Positions 3,190 to 8,614 of a stretch of DNA of 11,115 nucleotides are shown one piece after another. The number at the start of each line of letters is the position of its first letter. The first letter of the stretch is position 1. The stretch lies in the IMG/VR virus record IMGVR_UViG_2923302340_000003. One strand, 5' to 3'. This DNA is from a virus. Taxonomy: Duplodnaviria > Heunggongvirae > Uroviricota > Caudoviricetes. The notes under the pieces are model-generated. The model was not told where the DNA came from and ran no database searches. It was given only the letters and a program-made list of their open reading frames with translations. Position numbers and translations under genes: made by a program.

Positions 3190-3245
3190 ATTGCACAAAA
3201 TGAAATGATAGCGATAAATATTGCAATTAATGAAATGCAATAAGG
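3190..3245. promoter_or_regulatory. Two direct repeats ATTGCA-N4-ATGAAATG about 34 bp apart in the promoter region of the 55-aa gene; candidate regulator binding sites
   Basis: aattgcaCAAAatgaaatg and attgcaATTAatgaaatg, both read directly from the sequence. Confidence 0.3.
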
Positions 3246-3263
3246 CCGGGAAAAATCCCGGCC
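3229..3263 (-). terminator. Intrinsic terminator-like hairpin just downstream of the PerC-like gene
   Basis: GGCCGGG (3244-3250) and CCCGGCC (3257-3263) form a 7-bp perfect GC stem with a 6-nt loop. On the minus strand it is followed by TTATTGCATTTCATT. Confidence 0.5.
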
Positions 3264-3267
3264 TCCG

Positions 3268-3555
3268 TCACTGACTGCAATTTTTCGATCCAGGATATTT
3301 CCTGAATGCCTTACCATTGGGCTGATGTAATCCCATTCCGGCATGTGCCCGGCTGATGGTTTCGCGCATCTCCCCGAAATTATCCTGCTTTGCTGGTGGG
3401 CGTGCTGCCTTGCGGATACATTCCGCACGGCGCTTTGCCGCCTGTTCCCGTGCCTTGTCACCGTTCGCCAGCATAATGACCTCAGCCCACCGTTCCGCCG
3501 CTCTCCGGTACAGACCACGCGCTTCCAGTGCTTCCGCTTTGCTGTCGTGAATCAT
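3268..3555 (-). CDS. PerC-family-like transcriptional regulator (95 aa)
   Basis: The N-terminal motif AEALEARGLYRRAAERW resembles what I recall of PerC/Pch-type regulators. Start overlaps the stop of the upstream gene (ATGA). Family call is from memory, not searched. Confidence 0.5.
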   Translation of the reverse strand: MIHDSKAEALEARGLYRRAAERWAEVIMLANGDKAREQAAKRRAECIRKAARPPAKQDNFGEMRETISRAHAGMGLHQPNGKAFRKYPGSKNCSQ

Positions 3556-4094
3556 GCGCCTGTTTTCTCCTTTGCTGCCCGGCGCTGACGTTTGCGCTTC
3601 TCATTCAGCGCCACCAGCCGCGTTTCTGCGTCCTGTTGTTCCTGTGGTGTCACCTCGCCGCACGGCTGGCCTTTCAGGTCGTAGCGTACCCCACCAGCCA
3701 TTAAGGCGCGGTAATAGCGCGGACACTGCGCATAAGATGCCAGCGTCGCACGTAATGCCCCTGGCCCGAATGCCAGCCCCCTGACGGCGAGATCCTGCAT
3801 CAGGTCGTCGAATATCCCCACCTTAAGCGGCTTCGGTGCTTCCCGGCTGAATAATTCAGGCCACAACTCAGTGAGGCGGTTAACGCGCCTGCGGTTTTTG
3901 TGCTGGCGTTTGGTCATATGCCGCCACGGTGTCGCCCCTGTGGGCTTCTGCTGCGCTTTCTGGTTACCGGGCATCACTTTATGCGCCGATGTGGTTTTAT
4001 CCTGCTCCTGCGCCGCCTGCGTCGTTTTCTGCGGCGTGCCGTAAATGCCTTTAGGTTTTCTGTTAATGGTCAGCTTAGTCATGCTTTGCCCCAT
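3552..4094 (-). CDS. ProQ/FinO-domain RNA-binding protein with a basic N-terminal extension; true start may be the second ATG at 4082
   Basis: The segment LWPELFSREAPKPLKVGIFDDL...LRATLASYAQCPRYYRALMAGGVRYDLKGQPCGEV aligns by eye with the E. coli ProQ N-terminal domain (FPHCF...RPLKIGIFQDL...RVDLDGNPCGEL). Confidence 0.8.
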   Translation of the reverse strand: MGQSMTKLTINRKPKGIYGTPQKTTQAAQEQDKTTSAHKVMPGNQKAQQKPTGATPWRHMTKRQHKNRRRVNRLTELWPELFSREAPKPLKVGIFDDLMQDLAVRGLAFGPGALRATLASYAQCPRYYRALMAGGVRYDLKGQPCGEVTPQEQQDAETRLVALNEKRKRQRRAAKEKTGA

Positions 4095-4175: not shown

Positions 4176-4560
4176 CCTCACCTGCTGCACAGTGAGAATT
4201 TATGAAGTTAATAACAATATGATTTTAAATGTATTTTTAAGTACTCACTTTTTAATCCTTATATATACGCAAAAGTGAGGTAAATAGTTAAGTTTTAGTT
4301 AATATCTTGCATGGTGTGTTTTTTAACCTACCTGTTATTTTATTACCTCATTTCTATTAACTCACCATTCCTCACTTTTGTTCCTCACTTTTTATTATTC
4401 TTGTTCTGCTCCTCAGTCGTTTTCTTTATTGTTGTAATCTGTTGTTTTGCAATGTGTTTTTAACTCCTCACTTTTTGACCTATATACAGGTGAGAAAGTG
4501 AGGAAAACAGGGATGATTTTTAAATATTCCCTGCCCCCTCACTTTTACGCCTCACTTTTT
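4176..4560. repeat. Iteron array 1 (probable replication origin): CCTCACTTTT repeats in an AT-rich region immediately downstream of the replication gene
   Basis: Direct copies at 4244, 4370, 4383, 4466, 4537 and 4550. Inverted copies AAAGTGAGG at 4272-4280 and 4495-4503. Partial copies at 4176, 4346 and 4361. The last copy abuts the rep stop codon. Confidence 0.65.
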
Positions 4561-6262: not shown

Positions 6263-6463
6263 TTATTTTCCTGTCAGCAGTTCCGGTTTTATTTCCGCAC
6301 GAATACAAAGTTCAGAAAAAAATTCAGGAGAACCAACAATCTCATTACTTTTCAGTCGGCATTGTGATTTCACTTTCCCTTTATCCAGGTAAACCAGTAC
6401 GCGTCCGGTGAAATCATCTGGCACACTCAGGGTAATTGTCATTGTTGCTTGCTGATTATCCAT
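6263..6463 (-). CDS. Hypothetical small protein (66 aa) with one copy of an FTG-x-LV...G-x-V-x-S...RL module
   Basis: 8-nt overlap with the upstream gene. Shares a motif with the 121-aa protein encoded at 6456..6821. Confidence 0.55.
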   Translation of the reverse strand: MDNQQATMTITLSVPDDFTGRVLVYLDKGKVKSQCRLKSNEIVGSPEFFSELCIRAEIKPELLTGK

Positions 6464-6821
6464 GATTCACCCCCTGAATAACCTGATAACCGCAACTGGT
6501 CAGCAATTCGATAAATTCCGGCAGTGTGCCGAAACAGCAATCATCACGCATACGTTCGCGGGATACCTCAACGCCGTTTTCGTAGTGACTCACCATGCGT
6601 CCAGTAAAATGCAGATCATCATCGTGATGGCACGTTGACGGCTTAATCAGTCGCGCACGTTCTGCCAGCTCCAGCAATGCTTCAACACTTCCGGCAATTG
6701 CACCATCCGGCAGGCGATAATTACTTACCACGCGTCCATTCTCCACATTGACCAGTAGCTGCCCGGTAAATTTCTCATCAAACTGAATGCTGTTAAGGTC
6801 AGAAATTGACAGGTTATGCAT
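6456..6821 (-). CDS. Hypothetical protein (121 aa) with two tandem copies of the same module (FTGQLLVNVENGRVVSNYRL and FTGRMVSHYENGVEVSRER)
   Basis: Strong AGGAGGTG Shine-Dalgarno 5 nt upstream of ATG at 6821. 8-nt overlaps with both neighbouring genes. Confidence 0.6.
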   Translation of the reverse strand: MHNLSISDLNSIQFDEKFTGQLLVNVENGRVVSNYRLPDGAIAGSVEALLELAERARLIKPSTCHHDDDLHFTGRMVSHYENGVEVSRERMRDDCCFGTLPEFIELLTSCGYQVIQGVNHG

Positions 6822-7179
6822 GGTGCACCTCCTGGCGAATACGGGCGGCGAATACCATCACACAGCCATCAGGAGATTGCTGGCGTGCTTCCTGTTCGCT
6901 GGTGGCCTCGATGTGAATTACGCGCGGTTGTGCCGTGCTCAGGGCGATAAAACGCCAGATAAAATTGTTCTCGCATTTCTGAATAAACAGCGTGTTTTCT
7001 TCGCGCCCTTTCCATGTTGCCGAGATATAGCCCATGTCATTGAGCATCTCGCAGGCATCCACCAGCGTATCAGCGGCTACGTGTACAGTGTTTTTACCGT
7101 CAGCCATGCAATCACGGTGCACCGCCAGGAAGGTGTATATAAATTTAGGGTGAGTTTGGGTATGCTGTGTTCCAGCCAT
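6814..7179 (-). CDS. Hypothetical protein (121 aa, MAGTQHTQTHPKFIYTF...), first gene of the replication operon
   Basis: GGAG Shine-Dalgarno 9-12 nt upstream of ATG at 7179. The track's 335-aa ORF (to 7821) is an artefactual upstream extension that crosses the divergent promoter and the opposite-strand gene. Confidence 0.55.
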   Translation of the reverse strand: MAGTQHTQTHPKFIYTFLAVHRDCMADGKNTVHVAADTLVDACEMLNDMGYISATWKGREENTLFIQKCENNFIWRFIALSTAQPRVIHIEATSEQEARQQSPDGCVMVFAARIRQEVHHA

Positions 7180-7253
7180 AATCGTTACTCCAGTTAACGG
7201 TTTGGTTAGACGCCCTGCATGTGTTGCGAGCACTGCGGGGCGTCGCTCTTTTA

Positions 7254-7305
7254 GGTGTATTTCACCTTTGCTTTTTAATTTACTCACTGGTGAAATACAC
7301 TTCAA
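7254..7305. promoter_or_regulatory. Operator-like perfect 12-bp inverted repeat GTGTATTTCACC-N22-GGTGAAATACAC overlapping a candidate minus-strand sigma70 promoter
   Basis: Left arm 7254-7265, right arm 7288-7299. Candidate minus-strand promoter: -35 TTGAAG (reverse complement of 7299-7304) and -10 TAAATT (reverse complement of 7276-7281) with 17-bp spacing. TATACT at 7331-7336 may be the -10 for the plus-strand gene. Confidence 0.5.
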
Positions 7306-7366
7306 GCCTTTTTTTATCATTTTTTTTGCGTATACTGACATACACCAATTTTTAGGAGATCCAGAA

Positions 7367-7546
7367 ATGGCAACTGGTGCAAAGAACGCAAAATCACAAA
7401 TGACAACTGTCAGAATCCCACATGAAGTAATGGATGATATTGAGCAACTTAAAGAACCTGGCGAAAGTACCGCTGGTTTTTTAGTTACTGCCGCAAAAGG
7501 CGAGATCAAACGCCGCCAGCGTCGCAAGGCCAAAGAGCAGGAGTAG
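7367..7546 (+). CDS. Small protein (59 aa, MATGAKNAKSQMTTVRIPHEVMDDIEQLKEPGE...) divergent from the replication operon; candidate regulator
   Basis: AGGAG Shine-Dalgarno 7-11 nt upstream of ATG at 7367. Basic C-terminal tail. The track ORF 7202..7546 has an implausible N-terminal extension. Confidence 0.5.
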   Translation: MATGAKNAKSQMTTVRIPHEVMDDIEQLKEPGESTAGFLVTAAKGEIKRRQRRKAKEQE

Positions 7547-7767
7547 TTGATCAGCACCGGACGACCAGAAAAAATTGCATCAGTCGCGCCACCAGCAGTA
7601 TTTTTTGCTTTCCGGACAGCGTGGCCAACGGCATTTTGCAGCAAAATATTCTGCATTTCTGGCGTGCTGTAGAAACGGTGATCAGCGCCTTCACATTGAA
7701 CGAACTTGTCGCTAAAATTCACCCACATAGCAAACATCGCGGTGCTGTAGGTAATTCGTTCACAAAG

Positions 7768-7798
7768 GCGCTCCGGCAACGGGGCGCTTTTTCTTTTT
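7768..7798 (+). terminator. Strong rho-independent terminator (plus strand), possibly weakly bidirectional
   Basis: GCGCTCCG (7768-7775) pairs with CGGGGCGC (7780-7787) around a GCAA tetraloop. This is an 8-bp stem with one G-U pair, followed by TTTTTCTTTTT (7788-7798). Confidence 0.7.
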
Positions 7799-7813
7799 GT
7801 AACGGTCAGAGCG

Positions 7814-8614
7814 TTACACATGGCTGTTTTCCTCCATGCGACGGGCTAACCAACGCTGCGAAAGACGAATTAATTCAGCTTTCCGCTGGTGGTAGTCCTG
7901 GCCTAACTCAATCAGCGTGATATTGCTCTGCTCAAGGTAAGAAAGGTGCTCAAGCTGCAACGTGCTCATGTGGTCGCGTGGTTCGCCTGTGATGCCGTTC
8001 GCCTGCGCCCACTGTTTTGCAGTCATGCCACCCAGCACGATACGCGCCAGCATATTGGCTTCCGTGGTGTAGTGGTGCTGGAACGTGTTTTTACCCAGTT
8101 CAGCCCGGTACGCCTCCAGCGCGGCGCACATCGGCTTAAAGTAACTGGCAACGGTGATACGGGCTTTCAGTTCCCGGCGTAACGCTGCGGAACGAACAGG
8201 CGCTACCTTGTGTAGCTCCTCCTCGCATTTGATGAAGTACTGACGAACGGCGCGGCCCTGTTCGGTGCGTTCGACCATCGCCAGTTCTTTCGCCATGTTC
8301 ACGGTAATGATGTACTCAAGAGCTGTTTGCTGGCGAGATTTTGCGCTCACCGGATCGGGTCGGCTCAAATATTCAACAACCTCATAATCCACGCCTTCCG
8401 TGAAGCCGTATTCTTCAATGCGCCCCTTGATCCACGAACGGAAAACGCGACCTACACCTAACGCCTTATGCAACGCTCTGGCGCTAACAATATTGGTTTC
8501 ACACCCGCCAATAATGCCGGAAATAACCGGGATAATTTCGCCGAAATTTTGCAGATTCTGGTTTTCAGGCCGAACGAAGCCCTGCCCCTGTACGGGCGTT
8601 TTTCGCAGTTTCAT
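7814..8614 (-). CDS. Phage antirepressor-like protein (AntA-type N-terminal domain)
   Basis: The N-terminal region SARALHKALGVGRVFRSWIKGRIEEYGFTEGVDYEV resembles the AntA antirepressor domain pattern, recalled from memory. 266-aa ORF. Confidence 0.65.
   Translation of the reverse strand: MKLRKTPVQGQGFVRPENQNLQNFGEIIPVISGIIGGCETNIVSARALHKALGVGRVFRSWIKGRIEEYGFTEGVDYEVVEYLSRPDPVSAKSRQQTALEYIITVNMAKELAMVERTEQGRAVRQYFIKCEEELHKVAPVRSAALRRELKARITVASYFKPMCAALEAYRAELGKNTFQHHYTTEANMLARIVLGGMTAKQWAQANGITGEPRDHMSTLQLEHLSYLEQSNITLIELGQDYHQRKAELIRLSQRWLARRMEENSHV

Follow-up and report, generated by a model that had tools for sequence, protein, structure and literature searches.

A conserved terminator hairpin and a predicted cis-antisense RNA between the alpA operon and the replication genes of an EcCICFT073-type phage satellite

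Gene content and the terminator hairpin T2

The virus record IMGVR_UViG_2923302340_000003 (Caudoviricetes) comprises 11,115 nucleotides, and this whole stretch is referred to here as the window. Profile matches identified genes for an integrase, an AlpA-type regulator, an AntA/AntB antirepressor, a YlcI/YnfO-family protein of 59 amino acids, an Icd-like protein, a RepA-type helicase, a ProQ/FinO-domain protein and PerC. The integrase gene, alpA and the replication (primase/helicase) genes follow each other in this order and in one direction, and a phage structural and lysis gene set is lacking. By this gene content and order the element is a Gram-negative phage-inducible chromosomal island (PICI) of the EcCICFT073 type. 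Between the ylcI gene and the antirepressor gene antA it carries a strong terminator hairpin, T2, which, as judged from comparison with related islands, probably ends both the ylcI message and a separately promoted antisense RNA of about 75 bases.

Close E. coli relatives have the same gene order in their PGAP annotation, in which the stretch between ylcI and antA is left unannotated. In the prototype EcCICFT073 of strain CFT073, int and alpA are followed by an unannotated gap of 530 nt, a hypothetical gene and ylcI on the opposite strand, and the genes for the Icd-like protein, the primase and PerC. This gap holds an identical copy of the T2 hairpin (the unit lies at about 1,380,010-1,380,090 of NC_004431.1, on the minus strand of the record) and also the long open frame described below. 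The sequence-only reading of the region had pointed to the RNA-based immunity of P4-type elements. A P4-type element was not borne out, as gene set and order are those of a PICI of the EcCICFT073 type and no C4- or CI-type RNA was found; the P4 gene set (sid, delta, psu and alpha primase) gave no match among the 18 open reading frames (ORFs) scanned, which did not include all small ORFs.

In the ylcI part of the window the YlcI/YnfO-family gene (7367-7546; NCBIfam YlcI_YnfO_N, 9.2e-18; PHROG 949, 2.1e-20; also called by PGAP in relatives) is the sole gene on the plus strand. It is convergent with antA (7814-8614, minus strand; Pfam AntA, 2.4e-23; PHROG anti-repressor Ant, 7.4e-41). T2 is located between both genes, at a distance of 218 nt from the ylcI stop (7546) and of 16 nt from the antA stop (7814).

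T2 covers positions 7764-7791 of the plus strand and is formed by 12 pairs, including an A-U/G.U extension and 7 G-C pairs, with the 5'-arm at 7764-7775, a GCAA loop at 7776-7779 and the 3'-arm at 7780-7791. The core of 8 bp (7768-7775/7780-7787; 7 G-C pairs and 1 G.U pair) is followed by TTTTTCTTTTT up to position 7798. The U-tract (TCTTTTT, 7792-7798) extends the Ts of the 3'-arm, and the terminator scan reported the tail as TCTTTTTGTA, so that the G+C-rich stem and the U-tract of an intrinsic terminator are both present. On the plus strand 39 nt around T2 fold at -20.0 kcal/mol (z -6.19), which was equalled by 0 out of 200 shuffled sequences. The minus strand folds at -11.2 kcal/mol (z -1.94), and since this weak fold is followed only by CUUUGUG, T2 is expected to be a poor terminator for antA.

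T2 ranks first among the terminator-like sites of the window. The number of these sites (15) is not above chance (12.6 +/- 3.2 in shuffled sequences), and the case for T2 hence rests on its strength, conservation and covariation. The second-best terminator-like hairpin of the window (GAGGCCGGGATTTTTCCCGGCCTT; 3242-3265, minus strand) lies directly 3' of the PerC gene. No other plus-strand terminator-like site was found between 7476 and 7764 in the window scan.

Matches to T2 were obtained in 402 out of 5426 complete E. coli genomes (about 7%), most of them covering only about 55 nt around the hairpin, and exact copies of the hairpin are present in 100 IMG/VR stretches. A search of genome contigs with the Icd-like protein retrieved only 3 loci. 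Among loci found via YlcI alone, 27 out of 80 carry a T2-type hairpin and most others carry only the upstream terminator T1 discussed below. The T-rich tail is retained across all T2 variants (TTTTTCTTTTT, TTTCTCTTTTT, TTTTTGTTTTT, TTTTTGTTATG and TTTTTTTAT), and the loop is GCAA, GUAA, UUAUC, AUAUC or AUUUC. One stem position is C-G in three loci (L122, L182, L190), U.G in another (L172) and U-A in a further group (L123-125). Compared with the main T2 type, these variants also have an extra G-C pair, inserted with compensation in both arms.

All 10 out of 10 hairpin variants show the same strand asymmetry, with -19 to -22 kcal/mol on the plus strand versus -9 to -14 kcal/mol on the minus strand, and in every variant the minus-strand version is weaker by 7-10 kcal/mol. 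This asymmetry results from two plus-strand G.U pairs that turn into A.C mismatches on the minus strand. Together with the compensatory changes it indicates that T2, like T1, is a plus-strand RNA structure. On this comparative evidence T2 is a genuine intrinsic terminator, predicted to act on plus-strand RNA. The strong terminator with an 8-bp GC-rich stem, GCAA loop and U-run that the sequence-only reading had placed about 220 nt past the small plus-strand gene was thus confirmed by scan, folding, conservation and covariation.

The upstream terminator T1 and a predicted small RNA

Comparison with relatives identified positions 7547-7830 (284 nt) as a module whose left edge is exactly the first base past the ylcI stop. 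In relatives such as L002, L005 and L006 this module is located further downstream, after a second small plus-strand gene and T1. There the T1 stem is GGCGRCC..GGTCGCC, followed by the tail TTTGTTTT. Stems found for T1 include GGCCACC/GGTGGCC, GGCGACC/GGTCGCC, GGCGGCC/GGCCGCC and GGCAGCT/AGCTGCC, a covariation far richer than that of T2. With an invariant tail and at least 5 compensating stems, T1 was seen in L002 (3262-3290), L007 (about 1400-1430), L011 (2288-2309) and many of the loci L113-L192. A conserved CCCACCAGCCGCAA motif precedes it.

In the families B and C introduced below and in EcCICFT073, the ylcI operon terminates at T1, which leaves about 40 nt to the -10 element of a predicted promoter and about 125 nt to T2. 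In our window T1 is deleted and ylcI is without a terminator before T2. Owing to this loss the ylcI mRNA should run to T2 and carry a 3'-tail of about 250 nt; a long 3'-tail was one of the two options of the sequence-only reading. For the YlcI protein itself the AlphaFold model (pLDDT, the predicted local distance difference test, of 88) has an extended N-terminus and two helices. It gave no significant match to structures in the PDB, and a ribbon-helix-helix fold is our guess.

A conserved strong T2 behind T1 requires a start site between both terminators. In the window a predicted sigma-70 promoter lies at 7690-7718 on the plus strand, 48 nt upstream of T2, with the -35 hexamer TTCACA at 7690-7695, a 17-nt spacer and the -10 hexamer TAAAAT at 7713-7718 (10 out of 12 consensus positions). 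The 42 unique T2 contexts fall into five sequence families, A to E. The promoter forms are TTCACA-17-TAAAAT in family A (this window), TTCACT-17-TATAAT in family B (L002), TTCACA-17-TACAAT in family D (L018) and TTGCCC-17-TATCAT in family E (L123, L182), and family C (EcCICFT073, L007) has an extended -10 element TGATATAAT with invariant TG and without a -35 element. In L002 the family B promoter is the sole promoter-like match in 760 nt. The distance from the end of the -10 element to the hairpin is 48-54 nt in all five families; across the 42 contexts a -10 element TA.AAT is found at 48-51 nt from the hairpin, with families C and E having their own promoter forms. Families A, B and D agree at only about half of the 17 spacer positions, and divergence between families is still greater over the first approximately 25 transcribed bases.

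The T1-T2 tandem and the fixed -10 position are the main evidence in favor of an independent RNA of about 74 nt. We infer that it is expressed from this promoter and covers positions 7725-7798 of the plus strand, with the 5'-end about 7 nt after the -10 element. A length of 75-85 nt is predicted for the other families. The predicted RNA folds at -24.2 kcal/mol (z -3.35). According to an alignment of 21 variants it consists of a variable, weakly structured 5'-part, a conserved single-stranded segment (GUAGGUAAUUCGUUCACAAA), the T2 hairpin and the U-tail. The conserved segment comprises about 20 nt before the hairpin and reads GUAGGUUAAUUGUUCACAAA in family C. As the RNA is without ATG and the region is without codon-position bias in any frame, it is non-coding. 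The RNA is fully complementary to codons 8-33 (approximately) of a minus-strand frame. Only this cis site stands out from a duplex background of about -30 kcal/mol found everywhere in the window, and no trans targets were recognized there.

A search of the whole window with 4227 Rfam models, including C4, sar, FinP and isrK, resulted at E<=1 only in a spurious microRNA match elsewhere. The latter brought to light a long near-perfect inverted repeat (TCCTCACTTTTTGACCTAT..ACAGGTGAGAAAGTGAGGA; 4465-4504) just downstream of the helicase gene. For the region 7500-7860 the best hits at E<=10 were generic hairpin matches of 16-21 bits, compared with gathering scores of 50-110. The Pas small RNAs were rejected as a match, as they belong to Stx-type prophages and thus to another context. 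With no Rfam family match, and with no description found in the literature on these satellites, on FinO/ProQ proteins of PICIs or on small RNAs of CFT073, the predicted small RNA would be a new one. Its kind is well known, as mobile elements often have cis-antisense RNAs in their control regions.

T2 may also be nothing but a terminator, which gives the ylcI mRNA a long 3' untranslated region (UTR) and serves as a back-up or common barrier between the convergent ylcI and alpA/antA units, so that the promoter hexamers would be unused and no small RNA would be made. The loss of T1 leaves ylcI in this window with no other plus-strand terminator, a location 16 nt from the antA stop is where a terminator that separates convergent genes is classically found, and tandem terminators exist elsewhere. 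Several observations on the promoter likewise weigh against the small RNA. The window as a whole holds no excess of promoter-like hexamers (17 observed versus 18.6 expected). Family C has no recognizable -35 element and the promoter scan reports none there, and the -10 element of family E (TATCAT) is weak. Since families A, B and D share a common ancestry around the -35 element, the independent observations number about three (A/B/D, C and E) and not five. The 5'-part of the RNA showed neither conserved structure nor covariation, and its predicted helices differ between families. A function of T2 as terminator only would, however, leave unexplained why the -10 distance is fixed in five diverged families with changing flanks, and why a strong covarying T2 is maintained about 125 nt behind a strong T1; the weak minus-strand hairpin moreover makes it a poor barrier for antA transcripts. 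We regard this explanation as rather unlikely. The independent small RNA, which the sequence-only reading had considered for this interval, is supported by the conserved promoter 48 nt upstream of T2 and by the separating T1 in relatives.

The minus-strand open frame and the conserved block

The minus strand of the region is spanned by a stop-free frame of 335 codons (6814-7821), whose ATG overlaps the antA stop and which ends with the Icd-like domain. It crosses T2, the small-RNA promoter, a conserved 143-nt block, the antisense strand of ylcI and the divergent promoter region. The Icd-like domain (6832-6963; NF033153, 5.8e-22; residues 287-330) is a domain of 48 residues at the frame end. 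At the other end a start ATG (7821-7819) is preceded at a distance of 8 nt by the Shine-Dalgarno (SD) sequence GGAGGA (7835-7830; start and SD at 7819-7835, minus strand), and it forms with the antA stop an overlap of 8 nt that reads ATGTGTAA. An internal SD and an ATG at 7179 constitute the start used by PGAP. Start/stop overlaps of 8 nt recur in the minus-strand operon (6814-6821, 6456-6463 and 7814-7821), which suggests systematic translational coupling. A 7-bp hairpin TGTAACG..CGTTACA (7798-7818) lies right after the start codon of the long frame and before the T2 complement, so that two hairpins follow the ATG on the long-frame mRNA.

The three minus-strand frames 0, 1 and 2 contain 0, 3 and 6 stops in the region between ylcI and antA, 0, 4 and 2 in antisense to ylcI, and 0, 9 and 3 in the promoter region; across 7180-7821 the other two minus frames have 16 and 11 stops. 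The frame was open in 10 out of 10 E. coli loci examined first, where it comprises 291-493 codons, although these loci include a 450-bp insertion and at least 6 unrelated alleles of the promoter region. It was also open in 86 out of 104 IMG/VR loci (about 83%), with 247-795 codons and a median of 23-25 stops in the other frames. It comprises 428 codons in EcCICFT073 (25 and 30 stops in the other frames) and 324 codons in K. pneumoniae ATCC 13883, where it has an ATGA overlap with the upstream gene (23 and 20 stops). The stop-free stretch, which reaches from 6814 to 7845 in the window, has further examples in L002 (2135-3592), L011 (2272-3246) and L194 (8767-10053). Openness is found alongside very different Icd-like sequences of diverged families. 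In islands without T2, T1 falls within the first 10-50 codons (approximately) of the long frame. The loci are non-independent samples, and since about 17% of them have a premature stop, the constraint on openness is not absolute. An indel-length (multiple-of-3) test in the divergent promoter region revealed mostly 1-2-nt events that were split or compensated.

One locus on a 40-kb contig (L127, 2027-2724) has the integrase gene directly after the ylcI module and no alpA/antirepressor operon upstream, and here the long frame breaks off before it reaches the Icd-like gene. This single case fits the view that the frame is of importance only as a link between two operons.

The sequence-only reading had seen no convincing ORF in the 220 nt before T2. 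This needs to be corrected insofar as the minus frame is open throughout and has an ATG and an SD, yet it is without a coding substitution pattern. In 24 unique copies of the 143-nt block the 46 variable columns are distributed 14/13/19 over the minus-frame codon positions, which gives no coding signature. Plus-strand coding was rejected as well. A TTG ORF (7547-7672) and a GTG ORF of 99 amino acids (7621-7920) were considered and plus frame 3 is stop-free, with columns split 19/13/14 and hence no coding signal.

The region could nevertheless be the 5'-part of a real minus-strand gene, encoding either an extended Icd-like protein or the remnant of a BRO-N/AntA antirepressor, with hairpin and hexamers as by-products. 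The ATG, the strong SD, the 8-nt coupling overlap and the conserved openness would suit such a gene. In family C the frame opens with an AntA-like N-terminus, shows a weak Bro-N match (E 0.062) and is called a BRO-N pseudogene by PGAP. The predicted minus-strand peptide of 91 amino acids has no Pfam or PHROG match, and in the database it is represented by no more than 21 sporadic entries from E. coli, of which some have frameshifted tails and some are titled 'Icd-like protein, partial'. Against a protein product, the 14/13/19 split indicates no purifying selection on amino acids, the translation corresponds to antisense ylcI and promoter DNA and is not conserved as protein, and the register in which the open frame runs through the hairpin is another one in family E. 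The G.U-dependent asymmetry and the compensatory changes point to plus-strand RNA. We therefore consider this alternative improbable, although it is compatible with the small RNA and both can coexist. What is conserved in the long frame seems, from these comparisons, to be its openness and not its sequence.

The block crossed by the frame (7547-7689) fills the interval from the ylcI stop to the promoter of the small RNA. It has zero indels in the 24 unique copies, is flanked by 11-nt direct repeats TGATCAGCRCC (7548-7558 and 7679-7689), each with a GATC (Dam) site, and contains a near-invariant palindrome ATTTTGCAGCAAAAT at 7633-7647. The right-hand repeat stops just upstream of the -35 element of the small-RNA promoter. 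An inverted repeat (7595-7609/7640-7654) showed no compensatory change, the helices of the block are not common to the families, and the whole 259-nt region folds at a z of only -2.26. The notion that block and hairpin act as DNA, as an operator, recombination site or packaging site, could draw on the palindrome, the GATC-bearing repeats and the location of YlcI/YnfO homologues near terminase genes in lambdoid prophages, but we consider it very improbable, as G.U-dependent asymmetry and wobble intermediates are typical of RNA and not of DNA, only one side has a conserved T-tract, and families C and E lack the block yet keep promoter and hairpin. A DNA-level role of the block itself is possible, which would not account for the hairpin. 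In the divergent ylcI/Icd-like promoter region, three copies of a GGTGTATTTCACC-like motif (7250-7266, 7289-7305 and 7336-7346; two of them inverted) look like operator sites, one of which lies inside the spacer of a possible minus-strand promoter TTGAAG-17-TAAATT.

A proposed role in the control of island replication

Through the long frame the alpA/antirepressor operon is connected with the Icd-like and replication genes. The alpA promoter is activated by AlpA itself, a reporter fused to the gene downstream of alpA depends on AlpA, and overexpression of AlpA sets off replication; for Gram-negative PICIs no repressor is known (PMC6092414). Transcription from the alpA side has to traverse the ylcI module before it reaches the replication genes. 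The best explanation, which we favor by a modest degree, is that T2 ends the ylcI mRNA as well as a cis-antisense RNA of about 74 nt which gates translation of the long frame and read-through. Translation of the long frame would keep the alpA-side transcript coupled to ribosomes. In the uninduced island the small RNA and the antisense ylcI transcript would pair with the alpA-side read-through mRNA. This pairing would block or uncouple translation of the long frame or trigger cleavage, and transcription would stop before the replication genes, either via Rho or via RNase III cleavage. A FinO-domain protein, of the host or of the element, may assist through the terminator hairpin. Upon induction, strong AlpA-driven and translation-coupled transcription would override the block.

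Other findings are less easily reconciled with this scheme and also have to be counted against it. The small RNA of family C is antisense to codons 85-110 (approximately), in the middle of the ORF and far from any start codon, so that a simple block of initiation is not a general mechanism. For the Icd-like operon, a promoter-like site of its own and an internal SD and ATG seem to be present, so that upstream read-through may be dispensable. With a C/G ratio of about 1.0 (0.7-0.87 in the neighboring genes), the minus-strand RNA gives no strong rut-like signal. Finally, a ProQ/FinO homologue is encoded in only 32 out of 65 T2-bearing contigs with enough flanking sequence.

The ProQ/FinO-domain protein gene of the element (3552-4094, minus strand) was identified by Pfam ProQ (8.7e-24) and scores below the FinO and ProQ NCBIfam cut-offs. 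In a relative that is 97% identical over 7203-7830 (strain A41; L001) the corresponding gene (955-1472) is annotated as frameshifted, so the unit persists there although the element no longer encodes an intact chaperone. ProQ of the host is available in every case. T2 presents a hairpin with a 3' U-tail and an AAA stretch 5' of the stem, which fits the recognition rule of FinO/ProQ proteins. FinO-domain proteins bind terminator hairpins with a U-tail (PMC12001967, PMC9674577), and such a chaperone is plausible because these proteins recognize terminator hairpins (PMC12001967). The protein of the element is thus a candidate chaperone of the small RNA. Of the fit with a ProQ/FinO protein suggested by the sequence-only reading, the gene and the terminator feature of T2 hold, and the fit is weakened by the presence of a homologue in only half of the contigs and by the frameshift in L001.

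A comparable arrangement is the sar RNA of the phage P22 immI region, reportedly described by Liao, Wu and Susskind in 1987. Like the RNA predicted here, sar is a cis-antisense RNA of about 70 nt that is transcribed from a promoter of its own, which lies within an antirepressor operon and faces the operon promoter; sar acts on the mRNA from the opposite strand. In contrast to sar, which covers the ant ribosome-binding site, the predicted RNA stops, in our window, 21 nt short of the start codon, has no sequence or Rfam match to sar, lies in the middle of the ORF in family C, and would target a long ORF with an Icd-like end instead of ant. The OOP RNA of phage lambda is an antisense RNA of about 77 nt in a convergent regulatory region, with its own promoter and terminator and an overlap with one gene's end and its junction to the following gene. 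It shares no sequence similarity with our candidate and triggers RNase III cleavage of the cII mRNA.

RNA control of a different kind is the c4/icd/ant system of P1, reportedly analyzed by Biere, Citron and Schuster in 1992. In P1/P7 c4 as in P4 CI an upstream ORF is blocked (icd in P1, a leader ORF in P4) and transcription ends prematurely before the antirepressor or replication genes; our proposed scheme follows this logic, and the likeness would include an Icd-like frame that must be translated. The P4 CI RNA mediates immunity by a translation block of the leader ORF that results in premature termination (PMC4825925). Unlike the predicted antisense RNA, c4 and CI are processed from the leader transcript of the same strand and have short complementary sites. 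Neither gave an Rfam match at E<=10, and unlike P1 and P4 the element here is a PICI. FinP/FinO, FopA/Inc and FinO/RepX may be regarded as analogous in that the element encodes a FinO-domain protein and a terminator-ended cis-antisense RNA (PMC9977716, PMC8136791, PMC12001967). FinP differs in targeting the traJ 5'-UTR and ribosome-binding site, it has no Rfam match here, and only half of the T2-bearing elements encode the protein.

A wider proposal, which we put forward as tentative and doubtful, is that a 'conduit' frame of 250-800 codons and its antisense transcripts form an unrecognized negative-control module of Gram-negative PICIs. The amino acid sequence of this frame would be largely irrelevant, and openness would be needed for ribosome-coupled, AlpA-driven transcription. 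The frame would run antisense through ylcI, the ylcI promoter and one or two terminators to the Icd-like domain, and the ylcI mRNA together with the T2 small RNA would gate its translation and hence Rho-sensitive read-through into the replication genes. If true, this module would supply the 'missing repressor' of Gram-negative PICIs.

Gram-negative PICIs are widespread phage satellites. Being conserved, located between alpA and the replication genes, and present in the prototype EcCICFT073, which is amenable to experiments, the unit is a concrete candidate for the negative arm of their switch. It could also set immunity between co-resident islands, and it is a candidate cognate RNA for the ProQ/FinO proteins often carried by PICIs. 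The long frame, if translated, would represent an unusual case of selection for the openness of an ORF over its product.

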